This document shows, in pieces, positions 4,414-54,544 of a stretch of 64,000 bases of DNA. This DNA comes from Patescibacteria group bacterium. GTDB lineage: Bacteria; Patescibacteriota; Minisyncoccia; Phycocordibacterales; JAACPR01. The translations under genes were made by a program, and so were the position numbers. The first letter of the stretch is position 1, and every line of letters starts with the position of its first letter. The notes under the pieces are model-generated. The model saw only the letters and a list, made by a program, of their open reading frames with translations. It did not search any database and had not been told where the DNA came from. The DNA lies in contig JAKLEX010000001.1 in NCBI GenBank assembly GCA_022711495.1, forward strand, positions 291,379 through 355,378. Direction: 5' to 3'.

Positions 4414-5439
4414 ATGATGTCACTTATGGGAATCTTTACACCTAAATTGGGGATAGACCTTGGTACAGCCAACACTTTAGTCTTTGTTCCAGGTCGCGGC
4501 ATTGTTTTGAACGAACCATCCGTTGTGGCTGTTTCCGAACAGGACAATAAGATTTTAGCCGTCGGCGCTGAAGCTCGCGATATGATCGGCAAAACGCCGG
4601 GAAACATTGTGGCTTATCGTCCGATGCGCGATGGTGTCATTGCCGATTATCGCGTTACCGAGGCCATGCTCTCTTATTTTATAAACAAAGCTCTACCACG
4701 GTTTAATCTTTTCAAACCGGAAGTTTTGATTTCTGTTCCGGCCGGCATCACTTCCACGGAACGCCGCGCGGTCATAGAAGCGGCTATTAAATCCGGCGCC
4801 AAAAACGCCTATGTCGTAAAGGAACCAATTCTGGCGGCTATTGGTGCCGGCATCCCTATAAATGATGCTCAGGGACGAATGGTTGTTGATATCGGCGGAG
4901 GCACAACCGACGTGGCTGTTATTTCGTTGGGCGGAATTGTGGCCTCAACTTCAGTTAAAGTCGCTGGCGATAAAATTGACAATGCCATTGCTGATTATGT
5001 TAAGAAAACTTTCAATTTGGCCATTGGCGATAAGACGGCCGAACGAATAAAGATACGAATCGGCTCGGCGGTGTTGTTGGATGAAGAATTGAAGATGGAC
5101 ATAAAGGGCCGAGACTTTTTGACTGGGCTACCACGCTCTATTGAAATTAAAACCAACGAAATCGTCAAAGCCATAAACCGCGAACTCCGCGACATCATCA
5201 AGGCCATAAAAGATGTCTTGCAGGAAACTCCACCGGAATTGTCTTCAGACATTATTGATTTTGGAATTACTATGACTGGCGGAACGGCGCAATTGCGAAA
5301 CATGACCGAACTTGTTTTCCGTCGAACCGGCGTCAAAGCGCATCTGGCTAAAGATCCGTTATTCTGTGTCGCCAAAGGAACCGGCATTGCTCTCAACCAT
5401 CTTGATACTTATAAAAAGAGTATTATCGCCAAGAGATAA
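4414..5439 (+). CDS. mreB: rod shape-determining protein MreB (paralog 1)
   Basis: An actin-like ATPase with LGIDLGTANTLVFV phosphate-1 and DIGGGTTDVAV phosphate-2 motifs. The first ATG may be 3-15 nt downstream of the ORF start. Confidence 0.9.
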   Translation: MMSLMGIFTPKLGIDLGTANTLVFVPGRGIVLNEPSVVAVSEQDNKILAVGAEARDMIGKTPGNIVAYRPMRDGVIADYRVTEAMLSYFINKALPRFNLFKPEVLISVPAGITSTERRAVIEAAIKSGAKNAYVVKEPILAAIGAGIPINDAQGRMVVDIGGGTTDVAVISLGGIVASTSVKVAGDKIDNAIADYVKKTFNLAIGDKTAERIKIRIGSAVLLDEELKMDIKGRDFLTGLPRSIEIKTNEIVKAINRELRDIIKAIKDVLQETPPELSSDIIDFGITMTGGTAQLRNMTELVFRRTGVKAHLAKDPLFCVAKGTGIALNHLDTYKKSIIAKR

Positions 5440-6159: not shown

Positions 6160-6711
6160 ATGACATACGATTTCAAAAAATTTAAGTCTCATATGGATGA
6201 AGTTAAGACTTGGTTAAAAGGAGAATTGGCGACAATTCGAACCGGCCGAGCTTCTTCGGCATTACTGGATTCCGTGAAAGTGGATTTCTACGGCTCTCAC
6301 ACGCCCCTTAATCAAACGGCGGCGATTATTTCGGAAGATGCCCGAACCTTGAAAATTAATCCGTATGATAAGACTCAAACGAAAAATATTGAAAAAGCTC
6401 TGACTGATGCCGATTTGGGCGTTTCCGTGGTGGTGAACGATGCCGGAATCCGCGTGATTTTTCCGGAACTTACTTCCGAGAGACGAGATGCTTTGTTAAA
6501 ACAAGTCGGTAAAAGAGTTGAGGAAGCCCGTATTTCTGTTCGAAAGAACCGGGATGAAACTTGGAACGACATCCAAGAGCGAGAAAAATCTGGTGCTATC
6601 AGCGAGGATGAAAAATTCCGTGCCAAAGAAGAGATGCAGAAAATTGTTGATGAGGCTCAAAAACAATTTGAGGAGATGTCGACTCTGAAAGAAAGGGAAA
6701 TTAAATCCTAG
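6160..6711 (+). CDS. frr: ribosome recycling factor
   Basis: 183 aa. Full-length similarity to RRF, including LDSVKVDFYGSHTPLNQTAAI and ARISVRKNRDE. Confidence 0.9.
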   Translation: MTYDFKKFKSHMDEVKTWLKGELATIRTGRASSALLDSVKVDFYGSHTPLNQTAAIISEDARTLKINPYDKTQTKNIEKALTDADLGVSVVVNDAGIRVIFPELTSERRDALLKQVGKRVEEARISVRKNRDETWNDIQEREKSGAISEDEKFRAKEEMQKIVDEAQKQFEEMSTLKEREIKS

Positions 6712-9178: not shown

Positions 9179-10261
9179 ATGAAAGATTTCTGGGGAAAAA
9201 TCAAGAAATATATAGAAAAAATCAAGCCGATGTTGTCTAACGATATCGGTATTGATTTGGGAACAGCCAATACCTTGGTTTATGTTCCGGGAAAAGGCGT
9301 GGTCATAAATGAGCCGTCGGTTGTAGCCGTTAATCAGAAAACCGGCCAAGTTGTGGCTGTCGGCGCCGAAGCCAAAAGGATGCTCGGTCGGACACCGGCC
9401 CACCTGATCGCCACTCGGCCGATTGTTGACGGAGTTATTTCTGATTTTGAAATTACGGAAGAAATGATTGCTTATTTGGTTAACAAATCGCAGGAGGGTA
9501 ATAAAAAACTTCTCGGTCCGCGAGTCGTCGTCGGGGTTCCCAGCGGCGTGACTAACGTTGAGGCCCGGGCCGCGCGGGACGCCGCTATCAATGCTGGCGC
9601 GCGCAAGGTTTTCATCGTGGAGGAGCCGATGGCCGCCGCCATTGGTATCAAATTACCGGTCAATGATCCCATCGGCAGTATGATTATTGACATCGGCGGT
9701 GGAACAACTGACATCGCCGTGATTTCGCTCGGTGGAATTGTCAGATCAAAGAATCTCAATGTCGCCGGTGACGAGATGAACGAGGACATCATCAACTATA
9801 TTCGCAATGAATTTAAAATTTTAATTGGCGAGAAAACGGCCGAACAAGTCAAAATTGATATTGGTAAAGTTCTTCCGGATGGCGAATCGCTCGAATCTTC
9901 CGTTCGCGGTCGCGATTTAGTTTCCGGTTTGCCGCGTGAGGTGATCATTACAGAATCTGATGTTCGGGAAGCCATCGCTCAATCAATTGACAACATTATA
10001 GAAGCCGCCCGTGAAGTTTTGGAAACGACTCCGCCTGAAATTGTCGCTGACGTTATGAAAGCGGGAATTAATTTGGTCGGCGGCGGAGCGCTGATTCGCG
10101 GGCTGGATAAATTGCTGACTCAAGAATTACAAATACCGGTAAAAGTCGCTCCAGATCCTTTAACCGCTGTGGCCAGGGGAGCGGGAATTATTTTGGAGAA
10201 CCTAAAATTATACGAAAGCGTTTTGTTAGAAAATGAGGACGAACTTCCCCCAAAGGAATAA
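9179..10261 (+). CDS. mreB: rod shape-determining protein MreB (paralog 2, in mreBCD-pbp2 operon)
   Basis: The motifs IGIDLGTANTLVYV and DIGGGTTDIAVISLGG are present. mreC and mreD follow. Confidence 0.9.
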   Translation: MKDFWGKIKKYIEKIKPMLSNDIGIDLGTANTLVYVPGKGVVINEPSVVAVNQKTGQVVAVGAEAKRMLGRTPAHLIATRPIVDGVISDFEITEEMIAYLVNKSQEGNKKLLGPRVVVGVPSGVTNVEARAARDAAINAGARKVFIVEEPMAAAIGIKLPVNDPIGSMIIDIGGGTTDIAVISLGGIVRSKNLNVAGDEMNEDIINYIRNEFKILIGEKTAEQVKIDIGKVLPDGESLESSVRGRDLVSGLPREVIITESDVREAIAQSIDNIIEAAREVLETTPPEIVADVMKAGINLVGGGALIRGLDKLLTQELQIPVKVAPDPLTAVARGAGIILENLKLYESVLLENEDELPPKE

Positions 10262-11299: not shown

Positions 11300-12994
11300 A
11301 TGTATTTTTTCAACAGAAAGAGGGGGCGAGTTAGACAAAGAAGGGAAATTGATCCCGATGAGATTTTAATTGACGCGGAAAATCTGCCGGGTTTTGATAC
11401 GGATCAATTTGAAGGTCGGATTGAAAAACCGATCGCCAAAAAAACATTTTTTATTGTCGGTTTAATTTTCCTGATTATCGGGGCGTCTTTTCTTTCTCGA
11501 ATTTGGTTTTTACAAATCACCGAAGGTCAAGAAAATGTTAAAATTAGCGAACAGAATCGTTTGCGACAGTCGGTGATTTTCGCCGATCGTGGAATCATTT
11601 ACGATATCAATAATAATCCGCTTGTTTGGAACGAAGCGGCAGCCAATCCCGGAGATGTCAGTCAGAGGCGATACATTGATCTGCCCGGTTTCGCCGATCT
11701 CTTGGGTTACGTAACTTATCCTAAAAAAGATAACGCCGGATTCTATTTTGCCGAGGAGACCATGGGGGTTGATGGTTTAGAGCTTATTTACAACGATTTT
11801 CTATCCGGAGAAAATGGTTCGGAGATTATTGAGACCAACGCCTTGGGTGAAACGGTTGATACCAGTACTATTCGTAAACCTGTTCACGGCGGAGATTTAC
11901 ACTTAACCATTGATCGCGACATCCAGAGTAAACTTCAAGAAGGCATGGCGCGAATTATTTCCGAAAGAGATTTCCGCGGTGGCGGCGGAGTAATCATGGA
12001 TGTTTGGACTGGCGACATCTTGGCACTGGTCAGTCTGCCCGAATATGACTCAAATGTCTTATCAGAAGGGCAAGATGAGGCCAAGATTCAATCTTATATA
12101 GATAATCCGCAGAATCCTTTTCTTGATAGAGTCACCAATGGTCAATACACTCCGGGCTCTATTGTTAAACCTTTTATCGCCCTGGCGGCCCTATCGGAAA
12201 ATATTATTAATCCACTCAAAGAGATTTATAGCGCTGGTAAAATGTACGTGCCCAATCCGTATGATCCCGAACATCCCTCGGTTTTTTCCGATTGGAAAGC
12301 TCATGGTGCGGTTGATATGAGAAAAGCCTTAGCGGTTTCCTCAAACATTTATTTTTATCAAGTTGGTGGTGGGTTTGAAGATCAACCCGGACTTGGCATT
12401 TCAAACATAAATAAATATATGCGAATGTTTGGTTTTGGCGAATCCATTTCTACCAATGAGTTTGATACGCCTTCTGGTGTAGTTCCAAATCCGGAATGGA
12501 AGAGAGAGACTTTTGATGATGACTGGCGCCTTGGCGACACATATTTTACCTCAATCGGTCAGTACGGCTTTTTGGTGAATCCACTACAAATGGTTGTGGC
12601 CGTCGCGACTATTGCTAATGAGGGGACGGTTCTTAACCCGCGGTTGGTTTCCGATCAAACCGGTTCGCCGGAGATTAAAAGACAGGTTTCTATTTCACGC
12701 GAAGATTTTCAAGTCGTGAAAGAGGGCATGCGACAGGGCGTGACTTCGGCTACAGTTCAAGGATTAAACTATCCCGATCTGGAAATCGCCGGTAAAACTG
12801 GAACGGCTGAATTGGGCGAATCCAAAGAAAGAGTCAATTCCTGGGTCACAGGATTCTTTCCATATAGAAATCCGCGATACGCATTCGTCTTGGTTTTGGA
12901 ACAGGGGCTGGTTAAAAACCAGGTCGGCGCCGTTTATGCCGCGAAAATTCTTTTTGACTGGTTGAAAGTTGAAAAACCAGAATATACTTATTAA
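11300..12994 (+). CDS. mrdA: penicillin-binding protein 2 (class B transpeptidase)
   Basis: SIVKP (SxxK), SSN and KTGTAE motifs are present. An N-terminal transmembrane segment and a dimerisation domain are present. The gene follows mreBCD. Confidence 0.85.
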   Translation: MYFFNRKRGRVRQRREIDPDEILIDAENLPGFDTDQFEGRIEKPIAKKTFFIVGLIFLIIGASFLSRIWFLQITEGQENVKISEQNRLRQSVIFADRGIIYDINNNPLVWNEAAANPGDVSQRRYIDLPGFADLLGYVTYPKKDNAGFYFAEETMGVDGLELIYNDFLSGENGSEIIETNALGETVDTSTIRKPVHGGDLHLTIDRDIQSKLQEGMARIISERDFRGGGGVIMDVWTGDILALVSLPEYDSNVLSEGQDEAKIQSYIDNPQNPFLDRVTNGQYTPGSIVKPFIALAALSENIINPLKEIYSAGKMYVPNPYDPEHPSVFSDWKAHGAVDMRKALAVSSNIYFYQVGGGFEDQPGLGISNINKYMRMFGFGESISTNEFDTPSGVVPNPEWKRETFDDDWRLGDTYFTSIGQYGFLVNPLQMVVAVATIANEGTVLNPRLVSDQTGSPEIKRQVSISREDFQVVKEGMRQGVTSATVQGLNYPDLEIAGKTGTAELGESKERVNSWVTGFFPYRNPRYAFVLVLEQGLVKNQVGAVYAAKILFDWLKVEKPEYTY

Positions 12995-17126: not shown

Positions 17127-18417
17127 AAAAGTCATATTTATAATACTAACGATTGAAGCAAAAATTGTTCTTTTGCGTTATCGTCCGAAGATTATCGTTG
17201 TTAGTGGCACGGTTGGTAAGACGACGACCAAGGATGCCATTTTCTCGGCCCTCTCAAAGACTTTTCATGTTAGAAAGAATTCTAAAAGTTTGAACAGTGA
17301 AATTGGTGTGCCCTTAACTATTTTGGGTCTGGAAACCGGTTGGAATAATCCGTGGCGCTGGTTGTCTAATCTAGTCATTGGATTTTTGGAGATAATCTAT
17401 TATCCAAAATATCCCGAGTGGTTAGTAATTGAAGTCGGAATTGATCATCCGGGAGACATGAAAAAAACTGCTTCATGGCTTAAGCCGAATGTTGCGGTTT
17501 TGACGGCCTTTGGCCAAGTTCCGGTTCACGTAGAATTTTTTGAAGGACCAGACGATGTCACGAAAGAAGAAGCTGATATCATCAATTATTTACGCCGAGA
17601 CGGAATTATTGTCTTGAACGCCGACGACGAAAAAGCTCTGCGGTTGAAAGGGAAGACGAATCACAAAGTTTATACTTTCGGTAAGGGAGAGAATGCCGAC
17701 CTGGTTGCTTCTCATTATTCGGTGGTTTATGAATCTGTAAATGGCCGACCAGTTCCGCGCGGCGTTTCTTTCAAGGTCAGTTATTTGGGCAGTATTCTGC
17801 CGATTTCAGTAAGAAATGTTGTTGGCGATCAATTTGTTTATCCGATTCTGGCGGCGCTTTCCGTTGGCGTAGCGGTTAATTCATCGTTGGTTTCTTCTTT
17901 GGAGGGTTTGCGAAATTTTAAAGCGCCAAAAGGTCGCATGAATTTACTGGCTGGTGAAAACGAGACGATTATTATTGACGACAGTTACAATTCTTCACCG
18001 ATGGCGGCGACCAGCGCCATTCGCAATTTAGCCGAAATAGAAACGGCGGGGTCAAGAATCGCGGTGCTTGGCGATATGGCAGAAATCGGGCGATTCTCCG
18101 CCAGTGAACATCGCAAAATCGGAGCTTTAATTAAACAAAAGAAAATTGATATTTTGATAACTGTCGGCCGCGCTTCGGAATTGATGAATGAGCAGGCGAT
18201 TGAAGAGGGCATGGCTCAATCGCGCAATTATCATTTCAGTCATTCGGAAGAAGCTATCGCGACAGTTAAGAGATATTTAAAGCCGGGCAATATTATTTTG
18301 GTTAAGGGATCGCAATCAATGCGGATGGAAAGAATCACTAAGGCGATTATTTTGGAAAAGGATTCGGCTTCGGATTTGATTGTTAGGCAGGAAAAAGAAT
18401 GGCTAGCGAGAAGTTAA
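17110..18417 (+). CDS. murF: UDP-N-acetylmuramoyl-tripeptide--D-alanyl-D-alanine ligase MurF
   Basis: The Mur ligase P-loop GTVGKTTTKD and the IIDDSYNSSP motif (the DDSYN signature of MurF) are present. Confidence 0.75.
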   Translation: MKALIRKVIFIILTIEAKIVLLRYRPKIIVVSGTVGKTTTKDAIFSALSKTFHVRKNSKSLNSEIGVPLTILGLETGWNNPWRWLSNLVIGFLEIIYYPKYPEWLVIEVGIDHPGDMKKTASWLKPNVAVLTAFGQVPVHVEFFEGPDDVTKEEADIINYLRRDGIIVLNADDEKALRLKGKTNHKVYTFGKGENADLVASHYSVVYESVNGRPVPRGVSFKVSYLGSILPISVRNVVGDQFVYPILAALSVGVAVNSSLVSSLEGLRNFKAPKGRMNLLAGENETIIIDDSYNSSPMAATSAIRNLAEIETAGSRIAVLGDMAEIGRFSASEHRKIGALIKQKKIDILITVGRASELMNEQAIEEGMAQSRNYHFSHSEEAIATVKRYLKPGNIILVKGSQSMRMERITKAIILEKDSASDLIVRQEKEWLARS

Positions 18418-18582
18418 GAAGTAACAAAACTCCAAAGCATTTTTCAAGACACGCGTCGGCTCCTCCAGCGAGGAGCCGCGCTACTCTCGGTCGGTTTTCG
18501 GCACTCTTCGGTGCCGACCAAGCAAAACCGACCTGCGAGAGTCTCTCAAAATGCTTTGGAGTTTTGTTAGGGAGCTTAACTT
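18411..18582. ncRNA. highly structured palindromic element (candidate ncRNA / MITE-like repeat): 8+22 bp perfect closing stem enclosing three internal hairpins
   Basis: AAGTTAAG..GTAACAAAACTCCAAAGCATTTT at 18411-18443 pairs perfectly with AAAATGCTTTGGAGTTTTGTTA..CTTAACTT at 18550-18582. The internal hairpins are CGGCTCCTC-cagcg-GAGGAGCCG, GTCGGTTTT[CGGCAC-tcttcg-GTGCCG]...AAAACCGAC and GAGA-gtc-TCTC. The overlapping 68 aa ORF has no RBS and is judged non-coding. Confidence 0.5.
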
Positions 18583-18613
18583 CTCATTTAAAAATGCTAT
18601 ATTAATTGCCACT

Positions 18614-18687
18614 GGCCCTATCGTCTAACGGTTAGGACATCGCCTTCTCAAGGCGGAAATCAGAGTTCGATTCTCTGTAGGGTCACC
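18614..18687 (+). tRNA. tRNA-Glu (anticodon CTC)
   Basis: GGCCCTA acceptor (G2-U71 wobble), TCGCC-TTCTCAA-GGCGG anticodon arm with anticodon CTC, a 4 nt variable loop, CAGAG-TTCGATT-CTCTG T-arm, discriminator A and an encoded CC. Confidence 0.85.
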
Positions 18688-18706
18688 TAAACATTCTCAC
18701 TCACAG

Positions 18707-18734
18707 TTGACAGAATAAGTTCAAGTGATACAAT
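18707..18734 (+). promoter_or_regulatory. sigma70-type promoter TTGACA-16-TACAAT for the SemiSWEET-like gene
   Basis: TTGACA lies at 18707-18712 and TACAAT at 18729-18734. A GGGGG Shine-Dalgarno site sits 8 nt upstream of the ATG at 18778. Confidence 0.55.
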
Positions 18735-18777
18735 ATCTCAAGAAACTAAGGATCTTTAGAGATGAAAGGGGGATAGA

Positions 18778-19056
18778 ATGTCCTCGATACTCGGTGCTCT
18801 GGCGATGCTTGTCTCGCTGGCAGTTGTTTTCTTTGGCTTGACTTCTCAAGCCTGGAAAAATTACAAGAGAAAAACTTGCGAAGGTTTGTCCATAACACTG
18901 ATACTGGTTACGCTACTGGCCTATTCGGTTTGGCTGGCGTATGGAATATCCAAACCGGACTGGTTTTTGATTGCCTCGCAAACCCCGGGCGTAATAATGG
19001 GGCTGATAATCTTGAGCCAGTATTTGGTCTATGATTCCAAAAAGAAGAAGTCGTGA
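18778..19056 (+). CDS. SemiSWEET-like PQ-loop family small transporter (3 TM)
   Basis: 92 aa. QAWKNYKRKTCEGLS and LAYGISKPDWFLIAS...G.I match the PQ-loop/SemiSWEET signature (PQ..K.K....G.S and YG....D..LIAS). PQ is replaced by SQ here. Confidence 0.6.
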   Translation: MSSILGALAMLVSLAVVFFGLTSQAWKNYKRKTCEGLSITLILVTLLAYSVWLAYGISKPDWFLIASQTPGVIMGLIILSQYLVYDSKKKKS

Positions 19057-19089
19057 TCAGCGATAAACCCAATAAAAAAGGAGACTGCC

Positions 19090-19272
19090 ATGTCCAGAAA
19101 AAGATGCGGTATGAAAGGACGAATCCGGCTCTGCTTGCGGAACGGGATGATATTTTGCCACCGGCTGAAATGCAAGGTGCCGATCGTTGTGGACGACAAC
19201 GAAGGTAACTATTGCGTTGAGCCGAGCTGTCCCTGCAACCCACATCTGCGCCCGAAAGAAGCGGCGCAGTAG
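19090..19272 (+). CDS. small cysteine-rich protein (7 Cys in 60 aa), function unknown
   Basis: An AGGAG Shine-Dalgarno site lies 6 nt upstream of the ATG. The terminator follows immediately. Cysteines sit at positions 6, 15, 23, 28, 42, 47 and 49. The protein is basic. Confidence 0.45.
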   Translation: MSRKRCGMKGRIRLCLRNGMIFCHRLKCKVPIVVDDNEGNYCVEPSCPCNPHLRPKEAAQ

Positions 19273-19294
19273 GCAACTCTATTCCAAGAAACAA

Positions 19295-19327
19295 AACACT
19301 CGTGGCTATGCCCGGGTGTTTTTTATT
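19295..19327 (+). terminator. rho-independent terminator
   Basis: AACACTCG...CGGGTGTT forms a hairpin followed by TTTTTTATTT. Confidence 0.6.
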
Positions 19328-19355
19328 TGACACGTTGAATGTTTATTTGTACTAT
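19327..19355 (+). promoter_or_regulatory. sigma70-type promoter TTGACA-17-TACTAT
   Basis: TTGACA lies at 19327-19332 and TACTAT at 19350-19355. It is followed by an untranslated leader of about 75 nt before the GAGGAG RBS. Confidence 0.5.
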
Positions 19356-19431
19356 TTTACCCCAGAACAGTGGAACTTGAAGCACAACGTTTCAGGCCAT
19401 TGAGGAAAGTACGTTATAACAAGAGGAGAAG

Positions 19432-20367
19432 GTGGACATGAACAAGGGGACAAAGTTGGCGATAGCGCTATTTGTCGGGGCCGTCTTTGGCGAAGCTGTC
19501 GGTTATTATCTTCTGGTCAGTACACTCGGCCTTTCCATGATCTGGATTTTGCCGACGACTCTGATCGGGATGCTCGCTGGCAGTTGCGCCGTCTTGGGCG
19601 TCGAACCGTTGGTCCTGATTATCTGCACGATCGGTCTCTGGCTGACAAGTCTGGAGCCCGGCCAAAAAATCCGTGCGTGGAAACAGGGCCTGATTAGCAG
19701 TTGGCGTGCCTTCCGCGACGATCATCCGTGGTGGAGAACTTTACGGACGATCTGCCTCATTCTGTATTGGGCATCGTGGATCTGGGCGTATTTCAAAGCC
19801 GCCATGTTTATGTGGCATGGAAGTCACAGCCTATTCTTGGCTCTTACTGTGCCGGTTGGCGTTGGTGCGTTTTTGTTCGTCTCATCTATATTGCTCGTTG
19901 AGCGATATGGTCTGGAAGAAGTCCTTTTTCAGAAAATGTTGGTCCGGCGCTCGCCAAAGAGGTTATTTCGGAGAGACAAGGTGGTGGATTTCGTGATAGA
20001 GGAGATAACATTCCTATTGGCGGCCAACCCGTTTTCGGTGGTGACCATTGATATCTTCCTCGGCGGGTTTTTTGTGGTGAAAACCACTGCTGTCTGGCTC
20101 ATCAACCTTTTCTGGAATATTCTGGAGACGGTCAATTCCAGTAACCTTGTAGTGATTGCGACCGGCGGCGCGATCGGCCTGATCGTCTCGCAAGTATGTG
20201 GATATCCTCCGTTGATCTCTTGTGTCGTCGGCGGAGTCGGCGGACTTCTCGTGAAGCTCGCAATCAACGCGATCCTGTTCGTGTTTGTCTTCATCGTTCT
20301 GATGATCATGAGTTGGTTACTTGGTTCTGATATTATCTGGGAAGCAACATCGTGCGATTCGGACTAA
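19432..20367 (+). CDS. polytopic integral membrane protein (about 8 TM), unknown function
   Basis: 311 aa and strongly hydrophobic. A strong RBS AAGAGGAGAAGG is present. The start is either the GTG at 19432 or the ATG at 19438. The segment is GC-richer than its surroundings. Confidence 0.5.
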   Translation: MDMNKGTKLAIALFVGAVFGEAVGYYLLVSTLGLSMIWILPTTLIGMLAGSCAVLGVEPLVLIICTIGLWLTSLEPGQKIRAWKQGLISSWRAFRDDHPWWRTLRTICLILYWASWIWAYFKAAMFMWHGSHSLFLALTVPVGVGAFLFVSSILLVERYGLEEVLFQKMLVRRSPKRLFRRDKVVDFVIEEITFLLAANPFSVVTIDIFLGGFFVVKTTAVWLINLFWNILETVNSSNLVVIATGGAIGLIVSQVCGYPPLISCVVGGVGGLLVKLAINAILFVFVFIVLMIMSWLLGSDIIWEATSCDSD

Positions 20368-20409
20368 TGGTCGATTAGTTTGCTGGCACCTAATCGGTTC
20401 GTTAATTCC

Positions 20410-20448
20410 AAAGCTCGGAAGATGGCAATCTTTCGAGCTTTTATTTTT
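20410..20448 (+). terminator. rho-independent terminator
   Basis: AAAGCTCGGAAGAT-ggca-ATCTTTCGAGCTTT forms a hairpin followed by TATTTTT. Confidence 0.65.
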
Positions 20449-20474
20449 GACATACTTTTTAAAACTTGTAGTAT
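20447..20474 (+). promoter_or_regulatory. sigma70-type promoter TTGACA-16-TAGTAT
   Basis: TTGACA lies at 20447-20452 and TAGTAT at 20469-20474. An AAGGAG RBS sits 7 nt upstream of the ATG at 20520. Confidence 0.5.
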
Positions 20475-20519
20475 CTATCTTGAATAGTTCATAAGAATCC
20501 AAATATAAGGAGAAAACAG

Positions 20520-21167
20520 ATGAACCTGTTGATAGCTGATATTGCCGCTTGGATGAAGGAGAAGGGGCTGATCGGTCTGCATTTTGATACCACGGTTGAA
20601 GACGGAGTTTATGTTTATCATGTTTACGTTCATGGTCGAGTTTCGGCCGTCAGGGGCGACGACTATCAGTCGAACATTGAAGCTGTTGTGTTTTGGCATA
20701 AACCCGGCCGGCCGTTAAACGCCGATCAGATTGCCTCTTCTTTGTCTCCCGGAACTCGTAAGAAGATTCTTGACGAGTTGGAAGAATTGCAAGCCGCGAA
20801 TCGTCTTGATGCGTGCGATCAAATCGCATACACGGAGGCCTTTGAGTTCAAACTGCAGGAGCGGGTCATGGACGATTATCGTGAAAAATGTATGGTCGTC
20901 GGTCAGCGCGACGAAGAAGCTCTTCACATGTTTTTTAGCCCGGCCCGAGTGGTCGCTGGGCTGACTGACAGGGAGGTGCGGCTCTGCATTCTAATGTCTT
21001 CTTTACGCGATCAGCAGAAAAGGCTTTTTCCTTTGATGAGGCCACCGATGTTGTCCGAGAAGTTACTAAGATTTCCGGATATTTCTTTGCCCAGAGGGGA
21101 GGCACTGAAGGAGGCGATCTACGATATCCTCCTGGATATTGCCGAAAGCCAAATTCTTCCTTTTTGA
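20520..21167 (+). CDS. hypothetical cytoplasmic protein (215 aa)
   Basis: A good RBS is present with its own promoter and terminator. No recognisable domain was found. It contains an R-x5-H stretch (RDEEALH), which is weak HEPN-like evidence only. Confidence 0.45.
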   Translation: MNLLIADIAAWMKEKGLIGLHFDTTVEDGVYVYHVYVHGRVSAVRGDDYQSNIEAVVFWHKPGRPLNADQIASSLSPGTRKKILDELEELQAANRLDACDQIAYTEAFEFKLQERVMDDYREKCMVVGQRDEEALHMFFSPARVVAGLTDREVRLCILMSSLRDQQKRLFPLMRPPMLSEKLLRFPDISLPRGEALKEAIYDILLDIAESQILPF

Positions 21168-21179
21168 TCTCTTCGCTAC

Positions 21180-21214
21180 GACCAGAGCTAGTCTCTGGTC
21201 TTTTTATTTTTTTG
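21180..21214 (+). terminator. rho-independent terminator
   Basis: GACCAGAG-ctagt-CTCTGGTC is a perfect 8 bp hairpin followed by TTTTTATTTTTTT. Confidence 0.7.
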
Positions 21215-21229
21215 AGAGAATAATCACGT

Positions 21230-21656
21230 TGTTTTTTAAATAAAATCATTGCAAATAAAAATCACCCCTGAAAGATGAGGTGATGAAAATGGTCGGTGCC
21301 TTCTAGGCGGCACCGGTAGCCCCTAACTCTGCACTGAACTGCCATTAATGGCGGAGACCGGCGGAAATTGGTTTTTCCGCACCGCCGTACCTTTCTCGGT
21401 ACGTGTCCACGTTGGATTTTTACTGCCTTCTCCATTATGCAACCGGTTGGACGCCGGGACCCCAGTCCACGCGTGCGTTTCCAGGATCAACCAGAAACGA
21501 TCACTCGCTTAAACCGGAAAGTCGGTGCTTTTCAAGAAGAGTTCACAAACCCAACTGAACTTACGGCCTCCATATTTTCTAGACAAGAGAATAGCAAAAC
21601 TTGGTTTTGTGTCAAGAGGTTGCGGATCTCGGTCAATTTGCCGATTTGGGCAAATA
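21230..21656. other. GC-rich, hairpin-dense non-coding region (candidate structured RNA, unidentified)
   Basis: There is no credible ORF; 21368..21730 overlaps the thrS 3' end and lacks signals. Multiple stable hairpins are present: ATCACC...GGTGAT, CGGTGCC...GGCACCG, the palindrome GCCATTAATGGC, GCGGAAA...TTTCCGC, GTACC...GGTAC and TTGCC...GGCAA. Confidence 0.35.
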
Positions 21657-23387
21657 TTATTTTAGATCTTCAACCAATTTTTCCAAATCTAGCATTCCGA
21701 TATTACCTTTGTCGCGACTTTCCAGTGTGAACTTATCTTCCGCGATTTCTTTATCTCCAATTACGACGAAATAGGGAACTTTTTCAATCTTGGCCTTTCT
21801 AACTTTTTTACCAAAACCGTCGTTGGAATCGTCAATCTCAGCGCGGATTTTTCTTTTCTTAAACTCCGCCAAAAGCTCAAGAGCTTTTTCATTGTGAGTT
21901 TCTCCAACTGGCAGAATCTTCACTTGAACTGGAGCGATCCAGAAAGGGAAATTGCCAGCGAAATGTTCAATCAAAATCGCCAGAAATCTTTCATAAGAAC
22001 CCAGAATTGCTCGGTGAATCATGACCGGCGGTTTCTTTTGACCGTCTTTGTCCGTATATTCCAAACCGAATCTCTTTGGCATATTAAAGTCCAGCTGAAT
22101 CGTCGCCAACTGCCATTCGCGACCGAGAGAATCCTTAAACATATAGTCTATTTTTGGTCCATAAAGCGCCGCTTCGCCCTCCATGGTTTTGGCGCCTAAA
22201 TTAAGTTCTTCAGAGATTTCTTTCAAAATTTGCTCAGACTTTTTCCAAGTCTCTGGATCGCCGATGTATTTTTCCGGATGTTTTTTGTCGCTAGTAGAGA
22301 GCGAAACCCAATGAGAGCCAAACAAGCCGATGTCCGTATAAAATTCTTCAATAATTTTAGCGATACTTTTAACTTCATTTTTAACCTGTTCCGGCGTGCA
22401 GAAAATATGGCCGTCATCGCAGGTAATTGATCGAACGCGCGTTAGACCGCTGATTTCACCAGGCATTTCATCGCGATATTGCATGGTTGATTCCATCAGA
22501 CGAACTGGCAGATCGCGATAACTTCTTGGAATTGAAGCATAAATTTGGGTGTGATGTGGACAATTAACTGGCTTCAAAACGAATTCATCGTAATGGCTAA
22601 CAACTTTTATCAATTCATCGGAAAATTTAGCCGCATGACCGGAAATTTCGTAAAGTTTTTTCTTGGCTAAGTGAGGGATAGTAACTTCTTGCATGTCATA
22701 TCTGGCACTAATTTCAAAAAGGCGATTTTTCAAAGCGTTGCGAATAGCCGTGCCTTTAGGCGTGAACAATGGCAAGCCGGCGCCAACTAATTCGGAAAAA
22801 GTGTACAGATTCATTTCTTTGCTGATCTTGCGATGATCTCGTTCGGCCGCTTCAGCCATTTTCTTTTTGTGTTCTTCTAAGGCCGCGGCATTTTCAAAAG
22901 CCAGACCGTAAATACGAGTCAACATCTTATTTTTTTCATCGCCTCGCCAATAGGCGCCAGCCATTTTGTTGATTTCAAAAGCTTCGGCGTCAATCTCTTT
23001 GGTGTTCTCTATATGAGGGCCGGAACACAAGTCAACAAAATCTCCGGTTGAGTAAATAGAAATTTTTTGCCCGTCATTAACAATCTCGTCAATTAACTCT
23101 AGTTTATATGGATTGTCTTTAAAAATTTCGCGCGCCTCTTTTTCTGAAACCTCTTTTCTCTCAAAATCAAGCTTTTTATTGATAAGTTTTTTAATGGTTT
23201 TTTGAAAAGTTTTTAAGTCTTTTTCAGTCGGAGTTTTACCGTCACTGAAATCAAAGTCATAATAAAAACCGTTATCAATAACTGGCCCGATGGTGACCTT
23301 AACCTTGGGGTCAAAATCTAATACTGCCATAGCTAATAAATGAGCCAGCGAATGACGAATCTTAAATATCTTGTCTTCTTTATTCAT
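21657..23387 (-). CDS. thrS: threonyl-tRNA synthetase (short form lacking N-terminal TGS domain)
   Basis: 576 aa. It begins with the second additional domain (HSLAHLL). The class II catalytic core and a C-terminal anticodon-binding domain are present. Confidence 0.85.
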   Translation of the reverse strand: MNKEDKIFKIRHSLAHLLAMAVLDFDPKVKVTIGPVIDNGFYYDFDFSDGKTPTEKDLKTFQKTIKKLINKKLDFERKEVSEKEAREIFKDNPYKLELIDEIVNDGQKISIYSTGDFVDLCSGPHIENTKEIDAEAFEINKMAGAYWRGDEKNKMLTRIYGLAFENAAALEEHKKKMAEAAERDHRKISKEMNLYTFSELVGAGLPLFTPKGTAIRNALKNRLFEISARYDMQEVTIPHLAKKKLYEISGHAAKFSDELIKVVSHYDEFVLKPVNCPHHTQIYASIPRSYRDLPVRLMESTMQYRDEMPGEISGLTRVRSITCDDGHIFCTPEQVKNEVKSIAKIIEEFYTDIGLFGSHWVSLSTSDKKHPEKYIGDPETWKKSEQILKEISEELNLGAKTMEGEAALYGPKIDYMFKDSLGREWQLATIQLDFNMPKRFGLEYTDKDGQKKPPVMIHRAILGSYERFLAILIEHFAGNFPFWIAPVQVKILPVGETHNEKALELLAEFKKRKIRAEIDDSNDGFGKKVRKAKIEKVPYFVVIGDKEIAEDKFTLESRDKGNIGMLDLEKLVEDLK

Positions 23388-27437: not shown

Positions 27438-27656
27438 ATGGTTGTAAGAATGCGTAGCAATAGTTCTCATACGGGTAATCGCCGATCTCATATTAAATTG
27501 AGCAAGCCGGCGTTAACTCGCGACCAAAATGGCGCTCTATCGTTGCGCCATCGTGTTTCTCCGATTTCTGGAATGTACAAAGGAAAACAGGTTCTTGATT
27601 TAACTAAGAAGCTTACTAAGAAAGCCAAGAAGATAGAAGAGACAGAAAAGAAATAG
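27438..27656 (+). CDS. rpmF: 50S ribosomal protein bL32 (cysteine-free form)
   Basis: RRSHIKLSKPAL...LRHRVSPISGMYKGKQVL aligns with the bL32 consensus RRSHxALxxPAL..C..CG...LxHRVCPxCGYYKGxxV. All four zinc-ligand positions are substituted. Start taken at the MVVRMRS codon. Confidence 0.6.
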   Translation: MVVRMRSNSSHTGNRRSHIKLSKPALTRDQNGALSLRHRVSPISGMYKGKQVLDLTKKLTKKAKKIEETEKK

Positions 27657-27657
27657 G

Positions 27658-27717
27658 AAATTGGCAAAACACTTTTGAGAGACTCTCGCGTGTCTCGAAA
27701 AAGTGTTTTGCCAATTT
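27658..27717. terminator. giant near-perfect hairpin (about 27 bp stem) between rpmF and nusB; likely terminator/palindromic repeat
   Basis: AAATTGGCAAAACACTTTTGAGAGAC-tctcgcgt-GTCTCGAAAAAGTGTTTTGCCAATTT. A T-rich tract follows. The centre shares the core GCGAGAGTCTCTCAAAA with the element at 18535. Confidence 0.5.
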
Positions 27718-27768
27718 TCCCTTTACTTTTCTGTATAAAAAGTTAAAATTGTCCTGTACCTTAAAAGC

Positions 27769-35371: not shown

Positions 35372-36640
35372 ATGTTTTTTTCTAGATCATTAAGACGAAA
35401 CACCTCAAAAGGTTTCACTCTCCTGGAAATGCTCTTGGTCATCGCCATCATCGCCATCTTAGCTGCTATCGTTATCGTGGCCATCAACCCAGCGCGGCAA
35501 CTAGCCCAAGCTCGAAATGCTCAAAGAGCTAGTGATCTCAATGCTATCCATAAAGCTGTCCAACAGTACTACATAGATAACCTGGAATACCCAGACGGTT
35601 TAGATAGTAGTCTGCAAGAAATCTGCAATACTGGCGGAGGAGAAGATTGTATTGATATTGAAGACGCTTTAGTACCAACTTATCTTTCTGCTCTACCAGA
35701 AAATCCAAATGGTGGTAATTACGAAATCGCTCTACAGACTGGCAACAAACTAGCTTTAGTTGCTCCTGGTTCAAAAGAACAAGGACTTGGCGGCATTGTC
35801 ATTGGAACTTCAACTTCGTTAGTTGAAGAAGAAGGTGGTGGAGGGGGAGAAGAATGTGATGTTACTGCTGCCGGATCCTATGACTCCGCTACTGATGGCG
35901 ATTACACAGTTTTAACTTTTGATGGGGCCGGCACGTTCACAGTTAACTCTGGTACCTGTGATGCTGATATTCTTGTTGTTGGCGGTGGAGGAGGAGGAGG
36001 GCAGAAACATTCCGGAGGTGGTGGAGGCGGCGGCGTTATAGAAGAAAGCGTATCTGGTTTATCTGGTGAAATAGGAATCTCTGTTGGTTCTGGTGGCGCA
36101 GGTGGGCCAGCTGGTGATCCTTATAATGCTGGAGAAAACGGCGGAGATAGCTCTTTTGGTGATGATTATATTGCAATTGGTGGCGGTGGAGGAGGGGGTT
36201 ATAGTACAGCAAATGAAGCCGGTGACGGTGGTTCTGGGGGAGGCGCCGGGCAGAATAATGATGATCCGCCAGGACTTGGTGAAGCTGGACAAGGTAATAA
36301 TGGAGGTGACGAGTCTAGCGGCCGAGGCGGAGGCGGTGGTGGGGCCGGCGCGGTTGGAGAGGACTCTGATGGCACTAACGGCGGAACCGGAGGTGATGGC
36401 ATTTCTTCTGATATAACAGGTGTCGCCACCTATTATGGTGGTGGCGGAGGTGGAGTTGGTCCATCCCAAGCCGCTGGCGGACAGGGAGGCGGTGGTTCTG
36501 GTGCAAATTACAGCGATGAAGGATCGTTTCCGGCGGAAGATGGAACGGATGGACTTGGTGGTGGCGGAGGTGGAGGTCAAGATGCCGCAGGCGGAGATGG
36601 CGGTGATGGTGTTGTTATAGTCCGATATATAGCCAGCTAG
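35372..36640 (+). CDS. type IV pilin-like protein with very large glycine/aspartate-rich low-complexity C-terminal domain
   Basis: A prepilin class III signal MFFSRSLRRNTSKG|FTLLEMLLVIAIIAILAAIVIVAINP is present. A pilin head domain follows (QQYYIDNLEYPDG). About 250 aa are made of runs such as GGGGGGG, GSGGAGG and GGDGGDG. Start chosen at the ATG at 35372 because the ORF's upstream part overlaps trmD. Confidence 0.65.
   Translation: MFFSRSLRRNTSKGFTLLEMLLVIAIIAILAAIVIVAINPARQLAQARNAQRASDLNAIHKAVQQYYIDNLEYPDGLDSSLQEICNTGGGEDCIDIEDALVPTYLSALPENPNGGNYEIALQTGNKLALVAPGSKEQGLGGIVIGTSTSLVEEEGGGGGEECDVTAAGSYDSATDGDYTVLTFDGAGTFTVNSGTCDADILVVGGGGGGGQKHSGGGGGGGVIEESVSGLSGEIGISVGSGGAGGPAGDPYNAGENGGDSSFGDDYIAIGGGGGGGYSTANEAGDGGSGGGAGQNNDDPPGLGEAGQGNNGGDESSGRGGGGGGAGAVGEDSDGTNGGTGGDGISSDITGVATYYGGGGGGVGPSQAAGGQGGGGSGANYSDEGSFPAEDGTDGLGGGGGGGQDAAGGDGGDGVVIVRYIAS
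35980..36600 (+). repeat. degenerate GGN-codon tandem repeats (low-complexity DNA encoding the Gly-rich tail)
   Basis: Reiterated ggtgg(a/t)gg(a/c)gg units occur throughout. Confidence 0.6.
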
Positions 36641-54001: not shown

Positions 54002-54544
54002 ATGAATCAATTAAGAAAAGAGAGAGGTTTCACTTTATTGGAAATGCTTTTGGTTATAGCCATCATCGCCATCTTGGCAGCCATCGTCATCGTGGCTATC
54101 AACCCGGCTAAACAACTGGGCGATGCTAACAACGCTCAAAGACAATCAGATGTTTTGGCAATCTTAAACGCCGTTCACCAGTATTCCATTGACAATGAGG
54201 GCGATATCAGTGGTTTAGGCATTGTGAGCATTGCTGCCGCAGCTGATGAATGCGAAACCAGCGCCGATGCCACCAGCTATATTTGTCTCTACGATGCCGA
54301 TTGTGTTGACGGAACTGATTTAGATGATTTAATCGGTGACGATGACGAAGCGAGTTATTTGACTGATATTCCGATGGACCCTCTAGCCACTTCATCAGAT
54401 GAATTTGATACTTTCGGGTTTGATGACGAAGACCATAATGGATACATTATTCTACAAGATGACGATAACGGTCGTATTACTGTCTGTGCCCCACTTACAG
54501 AAAATCAGGATATAGGTGAAGAAATTATTACTGTAACTAGATAA
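54002..54544 (+). CDS. pilA: type IV pilin (candidate major pilin)
   Basis: MNQLRKERG|FTLLEMLLVIAIIAILAAIVIVAINP is a class III prepilin signal with Glu5. It is the first gene of the pilus operon. The C-terminus is acidic. Confidence 0.8.
   Translation: MNQLRKERGFTLLEMLLVIAIIAILAAIVIVAINPAKQLGDANNAQRQSDVLAILNAVHQYSIDNEGDISGLGIVSIAAAADECETSADATSYICLYDADCVDGTDLDDLIGDDDEASYLTDIPMDPLATSSDEFDTFGFDDEDHNGYIILQDDDNGRITVCAPLTENQDIGEEIITVTR

Follow-up and report, generated by a model that had tools for sequence, protein, structure and literature searches.

The 64,000-nucleotide stretch of DNA analyzed here (the window, in whose coordinates positions are given) comes from a Paceibacterota genome, within the Candidate Phyla Radiation (CPR)/Patescibacteria, and carries, between the gene for tRNA-Glu(CTC) and thrS, an islet of four forward-strand open reading frames (ORFs) at 18688-21230 that are arranged as three transcription units. 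Each unit has a promoter-like site with a perfect TTGACA -35 box, a leader of 36-80 nucleotides (nt) and an intrinsic terminator, and no further ORF fits between tRNA-Glu and thrS in the ORF list of the window. The four products are a SemiSWEET-type transporter, a Cys-rich peptide of 60 amino acids (aa), a polytopic membrane protein of 309 aa and a soluble protein of 215 aa, and their genes are set apart from the surrounding ones by their start signals, including the Shine-Dalgarno (SD) site, and by their base composition. The reading that we favor, at a probability of about 55%, is that of an accessory islet at the junction of two core blocks, probably acquired within Paceibacterota and not yet ameliorated. 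The features of the islet and its bounds are the following.

18614-18687, forward strand: tRNA-Glu(CTC), the conserved left bound of the islet, 3' of murF (ARAGORN; Rfam tRNA, 61 bits)
18707-18734, forward strand: promoter P1, TTGACA-16-TACAAT with a TG extension, an 11/12 match; leader of ~36-43 nt to the SemiSWEET ATG
18778-19056, forward strand: SemiSWEET-type transporter with three transmembrane (TM) segments, 92 aa, Pfam PF03083 and PF04193; weak SD site, GGGGGA
19090-19272, forward strand: 60-aa Cys-rich ORF with 7 Cys; AGGAG 6 nt 5' of the ATG
19295-19326, forward strand: terminator T1, AACACTCG-loop-CGGGTGTT and then a T run; directly abuts the next -35 box
19327-19355, forward strand: promoter P2, TTGACA-17-TACTAT; leader of ~80 nt
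19438-20367, forward strand: 309-aa polytopic membrane ORFan; AGGAG 9 nt 5' of the ATG, alternative GTG start at 19432
20410-20441, forward strand: terminator T2, a stem of 14 base pairs (bp) and then a T run
20447-20474, forward strand: promoter P3, TTGACA-16-TAGTAT; leader of ~40 nt
20520-21167, forward strand: 215-aa soluble protein; AGGAG 7 nt 5' of the ATG
21180-21200, forward strand: terminator T3, an 8-bp stem and then TTTTTATTTT; right end of the islet
21657-23387, reverse strand: thrS, the next gene to the right of the islet

The 60-aa ORF begins 33 nt 3' of the SemiSWEET gene, has no promoter of its own and shares the promoter and the terminator of that gene, with which it is predicted to be co-transcribed. 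The content given in an earlier note on this DNA was thus right for all four genes but not for the one promoter and one terminator that it had assigned to each of them, there being three of each for four genes. Terminator T1, whose stem has a G-T pair and whose loop is 10 nt long, was for this reason not listed by a simple terminator scan and was read from the sequence. The three products other than the SemiSWEET, all of them uncharacterized, are predicted to be expressed independently of one another, and the 215-aa one would be cytoplasmic.

Start signals and composition of the islet genes

AGGAG lies 6-9 nt before the ATG in three of the four islet genes, the SemiSWEET gene having only GGGGGA, and these three genes are the only places in the window where AGGAG occurs at true SD spacing. 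In the SD zone of the 47 host genes, not a single match to AGGAGGT of 4 nt or more occurs. A TAnnnT -10 box that ends 5-10 nt 5' of the ATG is present in at least 15 of them, including thrS, rpoB and rpoD, and a TATAAT-like box close to the ATG is found at many host starts (for example, those at 6160, 7897, 9179, 29407, 36886, 45556 and 59063 and, on the reverse strand, 23387); because -10 boxes at this distance are a signature of leaderless mRNAs, the genome appears to be largely leaderless. Host genes that are internal to operons abut or overlap their neighbors. The earlier statement that host genes mostly lack SD sites was therefore borne out, and in a sharper form than it had been made, whereas the strong AGGAG ribosome-binding site ascribed to every islet gene applies to three of the four. 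A perfect TTGACA box combined with a -10 box at 16-18 nt is found at eight sites on the two strands of the window, four of which fall within 18.7-21.6 kb. These expression signals had also been described as E. coli-like, a label that we do not retain, because they correspond to the general bacterial consensus for sigma-70 promoters, SD sites and intrinsic terminators, and greA in the same window has a promoter with a 12/12 match.

With regard to composition, GC content is 0.476 in 18688-21230 versus 0.419 in the remaining window, and the 500-nt bins of the islet peak at 0.52; the islet is thus GC-richer than its surroundings, as had been claimed, although the background of 38-40% given at the time was 2-4 points too low. 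At third codon positions (GC3), the four islet ORFs reach 0.570, 0.672, 0.629 and 0.537 in gene order, whereas the 47 other genes of the window have a mean of 0.416 with a standard deviation (sd) of 0.042 and a maximum of 0.491, which places the islet genes at z = 2.9-6.0 and all of them above that maximum. Of all bins of the window, the 2.5 kb bin at 18501-21000 deviates most in tetranucleotide composition (z 4.1), and the Karlin codon bias B of the 309-aa gene is 0.50 as compared with 0.25-0.33 in host genes of similar length. High expression does not account for the GC3 offset, because rpoB, rpoC and the ribosomal protein genes are not shifted. Composition is therefore not uniform, the islet standing out in GC, GC3 and tetranucleotides and the 309-aa gene in codon bias.

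The encoded proteins and their relatives

The SemiSWEET-type protein matches PF03083 (MtN3_slv; 6.2e-14, 52.2 bits against a gathering cut-off of 23.7) and PF04193 (PQ-loop; 6.6e-9, 35.8 bits against a cut-off of 22), and its three hydrophobic segments (residues 4-22, 39-57 and 62-80) fit the size of a single triple-helix bundle; the NCBI name of an identical protein is "SemiSWEET family transporter." It therefore resembles the SemiSWEET transporters, which are bacterial 3-TM homodimeric sugar transporters, in its length of 92 aa, in its three helices and in Pfam scores well above gathering, but it differs from them in falling below the NCBIfam subfamily cut-offs for SemiSWEET_1 and SemiSWEET_2 (NF037968, 33.8 bits against 80; NF037967, 17.9 bits against 200), which suggests a divergent subfamily, superfamily membership being unaffected. 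From its family membership, the protein may import sugar. It also has a weak match (1.6e-4) to one PHROG of unknown function. A word-indexed search returned only four other 90%-identity clusters of homologues, at 69-76% identity, in four unrelated contexts on contigs of GC 0.37, 0.46 and 0.50. AGGAG or GGAGG precedes the ATG in every one of these homologues, the other upstream sequence being divergent, and the genes around them are also SD-free with a -10 box before the ATG. One homologue (L011 3580-4031, L012 1-452; 69% identical) follows tRNA-Ser(TGA) by 90 nt and has a TTGACT promoter-like site and AGGAG, so that the tRNA-Ser/SemiSWEET order there mirrors the tRNA-Glu/SemiSWEET order of the window.

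The 215-aa protein had appeared to be an ORFan in a word-indexed search, a view that was overturned by exhaustive phmmer, which yielded a family of 76 cluster representatives (E<=1e-3), of which roughly 20 are full-length. The family has the C-terminal motif LHMFFSPxRVVxGLTxEEVRxCI, and six positions are invariant in the alignment. In an alignment-based AlphaFold2 model, the protein has an N-terminal helix and three long strands followed by a C-terminal helical domain, at a predicted local distance difference test score (pLDDT) of 85.7. No significant fold or sequence match was found for the family, the comparison of its profile with PDB sequences and Pfam giving noise only; the family is uncharacterized, and its fold, which is confidently predicted and without structural relatives, would be novel. 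Five family members were examined in their genomic context, and all of them lie in CPR-type surroundings. The closest homologue of the window protein (L003/L004, 45% identity) is encoded by a gene of GC 0.494 on a contig of GC 0.372 and is preceded by GAGGAG, with thrS at ~4 kb. In L014/L015, where housekeeping proteins are 40-49% identical to those of the window organism, tRNA-Glu(CTC) precedes the family gene by 1.6 kb on its own strand. The GC3 of this gene is host-like, an SD site is lacking, and an inverted ftsI-ftsL-rsmH-mraZ-greA-PBP2 block starts ~2.5 kb beyond the gene. The L018 gene lies between a DUF8128 gene and a sigma/HARE-HTH gene, a pair separated by just 72 nt in the window organism; sites of the family therefore differ between otherwise syntenic backbones. 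In L017, the family gene is compositionally host-like, and a SemiSWEET gene and a GC-rich, SD-led gene for a 461-aa ORFan are found 5-7 kb away. Taken across these loci, family members are GC-rich and SD-led in the window and in L003, and host-like in composition in L014, L017 and L018.

The 309-aa protein, which has at least seven hydrophobic segments, matched only itself among 5.8 billion proteins in a word-indexed search and has no family, PDB, phage or viral match. In a local phmmer search, neither this protein nor the 60-aa one was matched by any ORF of the retrieved loci.

The association of SD sites with a deviating GC3 is not confined to the islet. In a pooled set of 188 called genes from eight genomes or loci of the group, a 5-nt SD site is present in 20, whose median robust GC3 z is +2.45 versus -0.06 for the rest (Mann-Whitney p = 2.8e-7). 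The GC3 of SD-led genes is ~0.32-0.67 irrespective of the GC3 of the host, and these genes stand out in the AT-rich L003, L010, L017 and the window organism but not in the GC-richer L009 and L013. For example, an SD-led leuB-like Iso_dh gene (L010 1597-2814) has a GC content of 0.505 on a contig of GC 0.37, and the SD-led gene for the 461-aa ORFan (L017 2909-4294) has a GC content of 0.516. A further cluster lies on the same contig as the islet, 3-5 kb before position 1 of the window (L019 1401-2443), and consists of three minus-strand ORFs of 94, 66 and 127 aa, each with an SD-like site and none with a Pfam match; one of them has a GC3 of 0.672, and the cluster resembles the islet.

Flanking blocks and neighboring elements

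On its left, the islet is flanked by MreB-MreC-PBP2-GreA-MraZ-RsmH-FtsL-FtsI-MurF, followed by tRNA-Glu. A metagenome scan with MurF gave a single relative, L013, which belongs to Candidatus Vogelbacteria by the name of its FtsI protein and in which a 271-aa ORF and then, 1.26 kb after murF, tRNA-Glu(CTC) come after mraZ-rsmH-ftsI-murF, the 10 kb beyond being free of mur and fts genes and the genes that follow the tRNA differing from those of the islet. The short division and cell wall (dcw) block that ends in murF and then tRNA-Glu therefore predates the islet, and the cluster has been neither split nor replaced: that the islet interrupts the dcw cluster in place of murE/mraY/murD, as the earlier note had proposed, is not supported, given the succession of murF, 271-aa ORF and tRNA-Glu(CTC) in L013. 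As compared with the dcw cluster elsewhere, the left flank keeps mraZ-rsmH-ftsL-ftsI-murF in canonical order but, here as in Candidatus Vogelbacteria, ends at murF and tRNA-Glu, whereas the window contains no mraY, murD, ftsW or murG, and ddl lies at a distance of 34 kb. In L013, directly 3' of tRNA-Glu(CTC) (12655-12900), we also noted a TTGACA promoter-like site, an SD site (GGAGAAGGAGG) and a 27-codon ORF, followed by ~1 kb without a convincing gene, and the post-tRNA spacer appears to be variable there too.

On the right, thrS-dnaE-rnhB is kept in four GTDB genomes (ThrRS 70-83% identical, GC 0.32-0.35). None of the four islet genes lies beside thrS in these relatives, where the neighborhood is wholly different and comprises an unrelated 110-aa ORF, a 217-aa ORF, tRNA-Tyr, a 268-aa ORF and a large AAA+ ORF (ClpB-like by eye). 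Because the left and the right blocks are independently conserved, the islet sits exactly at the junction of two core blocks, and the absence of its genes after thrS in relatives that have kept rnhB-dnaE-thrS makes an acquisition plausible. The synteny comparison that had been called for thus covers the thrS side in these four relatives, with their wholly different neighborhood, and the murF side only in L013, whose MurF is 41% identical.

Two structured elements lie next to the islet.

18405-18600, forward strand: palindromic element of 190 nt with a three-way junction, between the murF stop and tRNA-Glu (fold z -12.7); outside the islet proper
21261-21615, reverse strand: candidate structured RNA of ~325 nt with a TTGACA-16-TATTCT promoter, a hairpin/T-run terminator and a GC content of ~0.47-0.50; its membership in the islet is uncertain

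The palindromic element, which folds into a long stem, has no Rfam match at gathering or lax thresholds, Rfam giving only tRNAs; it shares a 25-nt stretch with an inverted repeat at 27646-27729, between rpmF and nusB, and on this basis could be one of a small family of structured elements located between genes. The unannotated ~325-nt unit between the islet and thrS, at 21261-21585, has a fold z of -4.0 against shuffles and no convincing ORF; no Rfam family was found for it even at lax thresholds, nor a counterpart downstream of thrS in the relatives.

Elsewhere in the window, a gene at 35372-36640 encodes a 422-aa Gly-rich protein with no Pfam match and at least eight copies of GGTGGNGGAGG, in a region with a local GC skew of 0.33. 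The first 118 nt of the gene share 80% identity with the beginning of a pilin-like gene at 54025 that has a prepilin N-methylation motif, and the product is probably a Gly-rich pilin-like surface protein. A type IV pilus cluster (pilin, PilB, PilC and PilM) occupies 54-60.4 kb. Two MreB paralogues are encoded within 5 kb of each other (4414-5439 and 9179-10261), the second directly 5' of mreC-PBP2.

Origin of the islet and comparison with known systems

The reading that we favor is that horizontal transfer, once or more than once, would have brought in the four genes from a pool with a GC3 of ~0.5-0.65 that is shared within Paceibacterota. The islet would lie in a variable spacer downstream of tRNA-Glu(CTC), a rearrangement-prone, tRNA-flanking region in which insertion probably took place by illegitimate or homology-facilitated recombination, since no integrase mechanism is evident, and its composition would not yet have become host-like. 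Horizontal acquisition as such, which had been put forward at the outset, is plausible for a contiguous outlier in composition and signals beside a tRNA gene; what is not supported is the phylogenetically distant donor, because the relatives of the SemiSWEET (69-76%) and of the 215-aa protein occur only in Paceibacterota-like contigs with leaderless-style core genes, and relatives within the same phylum count against such a donor on the earlier note's own terms.

Several observations weigh against an acquisition. No donor was found. No integrase or recombinase family was detected among the four ORFs with Pfam, NCBIfam and PHROGs, and the 27-nt 3' end of the tRNA gives only a self-match at up to three mismatches, blastn at word size 7 also returning no second copy; the lack of an integrase and of a direct repeat had already been stated and was confirmed, the search for an attR being blank. 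No mobile-element gene was detected. Three of the four proteins have no match in Pfam, NCBIfam, PHROGs or PADLOC, and the 60-aa ORF is also unmatched in PDB, plasmids and viral contigs, searches that did not extend to the large protein collections. On the murF side, the metagenome scan gave L013 alone, with its MurF of 41% identity, and no close relative. The 215-aa gene near tRNA-Glu(CTC) and a dcw block in L014, and the one ~4 kb from thrS in L003, amount to a loose linkage that might stem from ancient vertical inheritance, at least in the case of this gene. The link between SD sites and GC3 would be equally expected from a native class of leadered genes with a compositional bias from other causes. 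Finally, the SD sites of the islet are sequence matches whose usability would hinge on an anti-SD motif at the 3' end of the host 16S rRNA; among Parcubacteria, no more than 48% of 16S sequences have a detected motif of this kind according to Tsurumaki et al. (2022, PMC9297842).

The first alternative, to which we give a clearly smaller though still appreciable chance, is that the islet belongs to a native, vertically inherited class of leadered, SD-dependent genes with individually regulated mRNAs and that its composition is a property of this class rather than a foreign trace. In addition to the linkage of the 215-aa family in L014 and L003, this is supported by the SD site kept in all SemiSWEET homologues despite divergent upstream sequence and by the presence of both an SD-free core and SD-led minor genes at each Paceibacterota-like locus that was examined, the GC-rich L009 and L013 included, where the SD-led genes are no outliers in composition. 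On the other hand, a shift of 3-6 sd at third codon positions is not explicable by expression signals, and rpoB, rpoC and the ribosomal protein genes are unshifted. Moreover, the family members of L014, L017 and L018 have host-like GC3, two of the three being without an SD site, and the positions of the family vary between syntenic backbones, relatives having no such genes beside thrS.

An island of the classical kind that integrates at a tRNA gene, or the remnant of a phage or plasmid, derived from a distant, SD-using and GC-richer donor is improbable and largely refuted. The segment does start 20 nt after the tRNA gene, deviates in composition and has consensus SD sites, and the SemiSWEET has its weak PHROG match. 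However, neither an integrase nor a repeat of the tRNA 3' end accompanies it, the other three genes have no PHROG match, and all detectable homologues lie in Paceibacterota-like contigs. None of the four proteins has a PADLOC match at E<=1, and no relatives of them or of two family alignments were found in IMG/VR; the DNA of the segment has no phage or plasmid match by blastn, and at the protein level nothing was found for the 60-aa protein among plasmids or for the 309-aa protein among phages. A defense island was ruled out by the PADLOC result for all four proteins. A prophage or phage remnant is likewise not supported, the sole PHROG match, that of the SemiSWEET, being of unknown function and unaccompanied by IMG/VR relatives or a phage DNA match. 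Of the proposal that the tRNA gene served as an integration target, the adjacency thus stands, the islet starting directly after tRNA-Glu, but no integrase, att repeat or phage, plasmid or defense match supports the rest. An assembly or binning chimera, which the sharp jump in composition on both sides might suggest, can practically be dismissed because the same gene order with 100% identical proteins recurs on contigs from independent samples (JGI 3300025715, JGI 3300010429 with the sequence in the middle of 552,797 bp, Logan SRR5007150 and the NCBI metagenome-assembled genome (MAG)), the 215-aa protein being on 12 contigs in total.

Coming back to acquisition within Paceibacterota, a more general, tentative proposal is that these bacteria might run two initiation regimes, a leaderless, SD-free core and a mobile accessory pool that passes between lineages and is GC3-richer, SD-led with canonical AGGAG sites, and long-leadered with consensus -35 promoters; the islet and the L019 cluster would together be one instance. 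We found no report in the literature of an association between SD sites and GC3 in this group, nor of Paceibacterota-specific leaderless or SD usage, save the loss of the anti-SD (PMC9297842). The source of the few accessory genes in minimal CPR genomes is poorly understood, and in the present genome such genes can be recognized by two independent signatures, namely, synonymous-site composition and the switch from leaderless to SD-led starts. If general, this would provide a simple flag for exchanged genes in thousands of CPR MAGs and would bear on the retention or loss of the anti-SD in Parcubacteria; if the two-regime proposal is true, an SD site together with a GC3 offset would flag recently exchanged genes across the phylum. 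Had the lineage lost this motif, which seems to be missing from roughly half of the 16S sequences of Parcubacteria, its SD sites would either be relics that are not translated or require a different way of initiating translation.

The pattern can be compared with the "atypical" and "native" gene classes that GeneMarkS-2 distinguishes in leaderless-type genomes (Lomsadze et al. 2018, PMC6028130). As in that framework, the core has a -10 box right before the ATG and no SD site, and an atypical minority has other start signals; the difference is that the atypical genes here are SD-led, with long leaders and a consensus -35 box, and that the link between SD sites and GC3 recurs across Paceibacterota loci. 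The islet also shares with tRNA-adjacent genomic islets its contiguity, its deviation in GC, GC3 and tetranucleotides, its position beside a tRNA gene at a synteny junction and its accessory or ORFan genes with their own expression signals. It differs from them in having no integrase, direct repeats or mobility genes and in that the relatives found are all within the same phylum-level group. Most acquired DNA is AT-richer than its host, whereas the islet is GC-richer. No new mechanism is demonstrated by these data, and atypical islets adjacent to tRNA genes are already known; what is less ordinary here is the clean switch in initiation mode, its recurrence across the group and an uncharacterized protein family with an apparently novel predicted fold.

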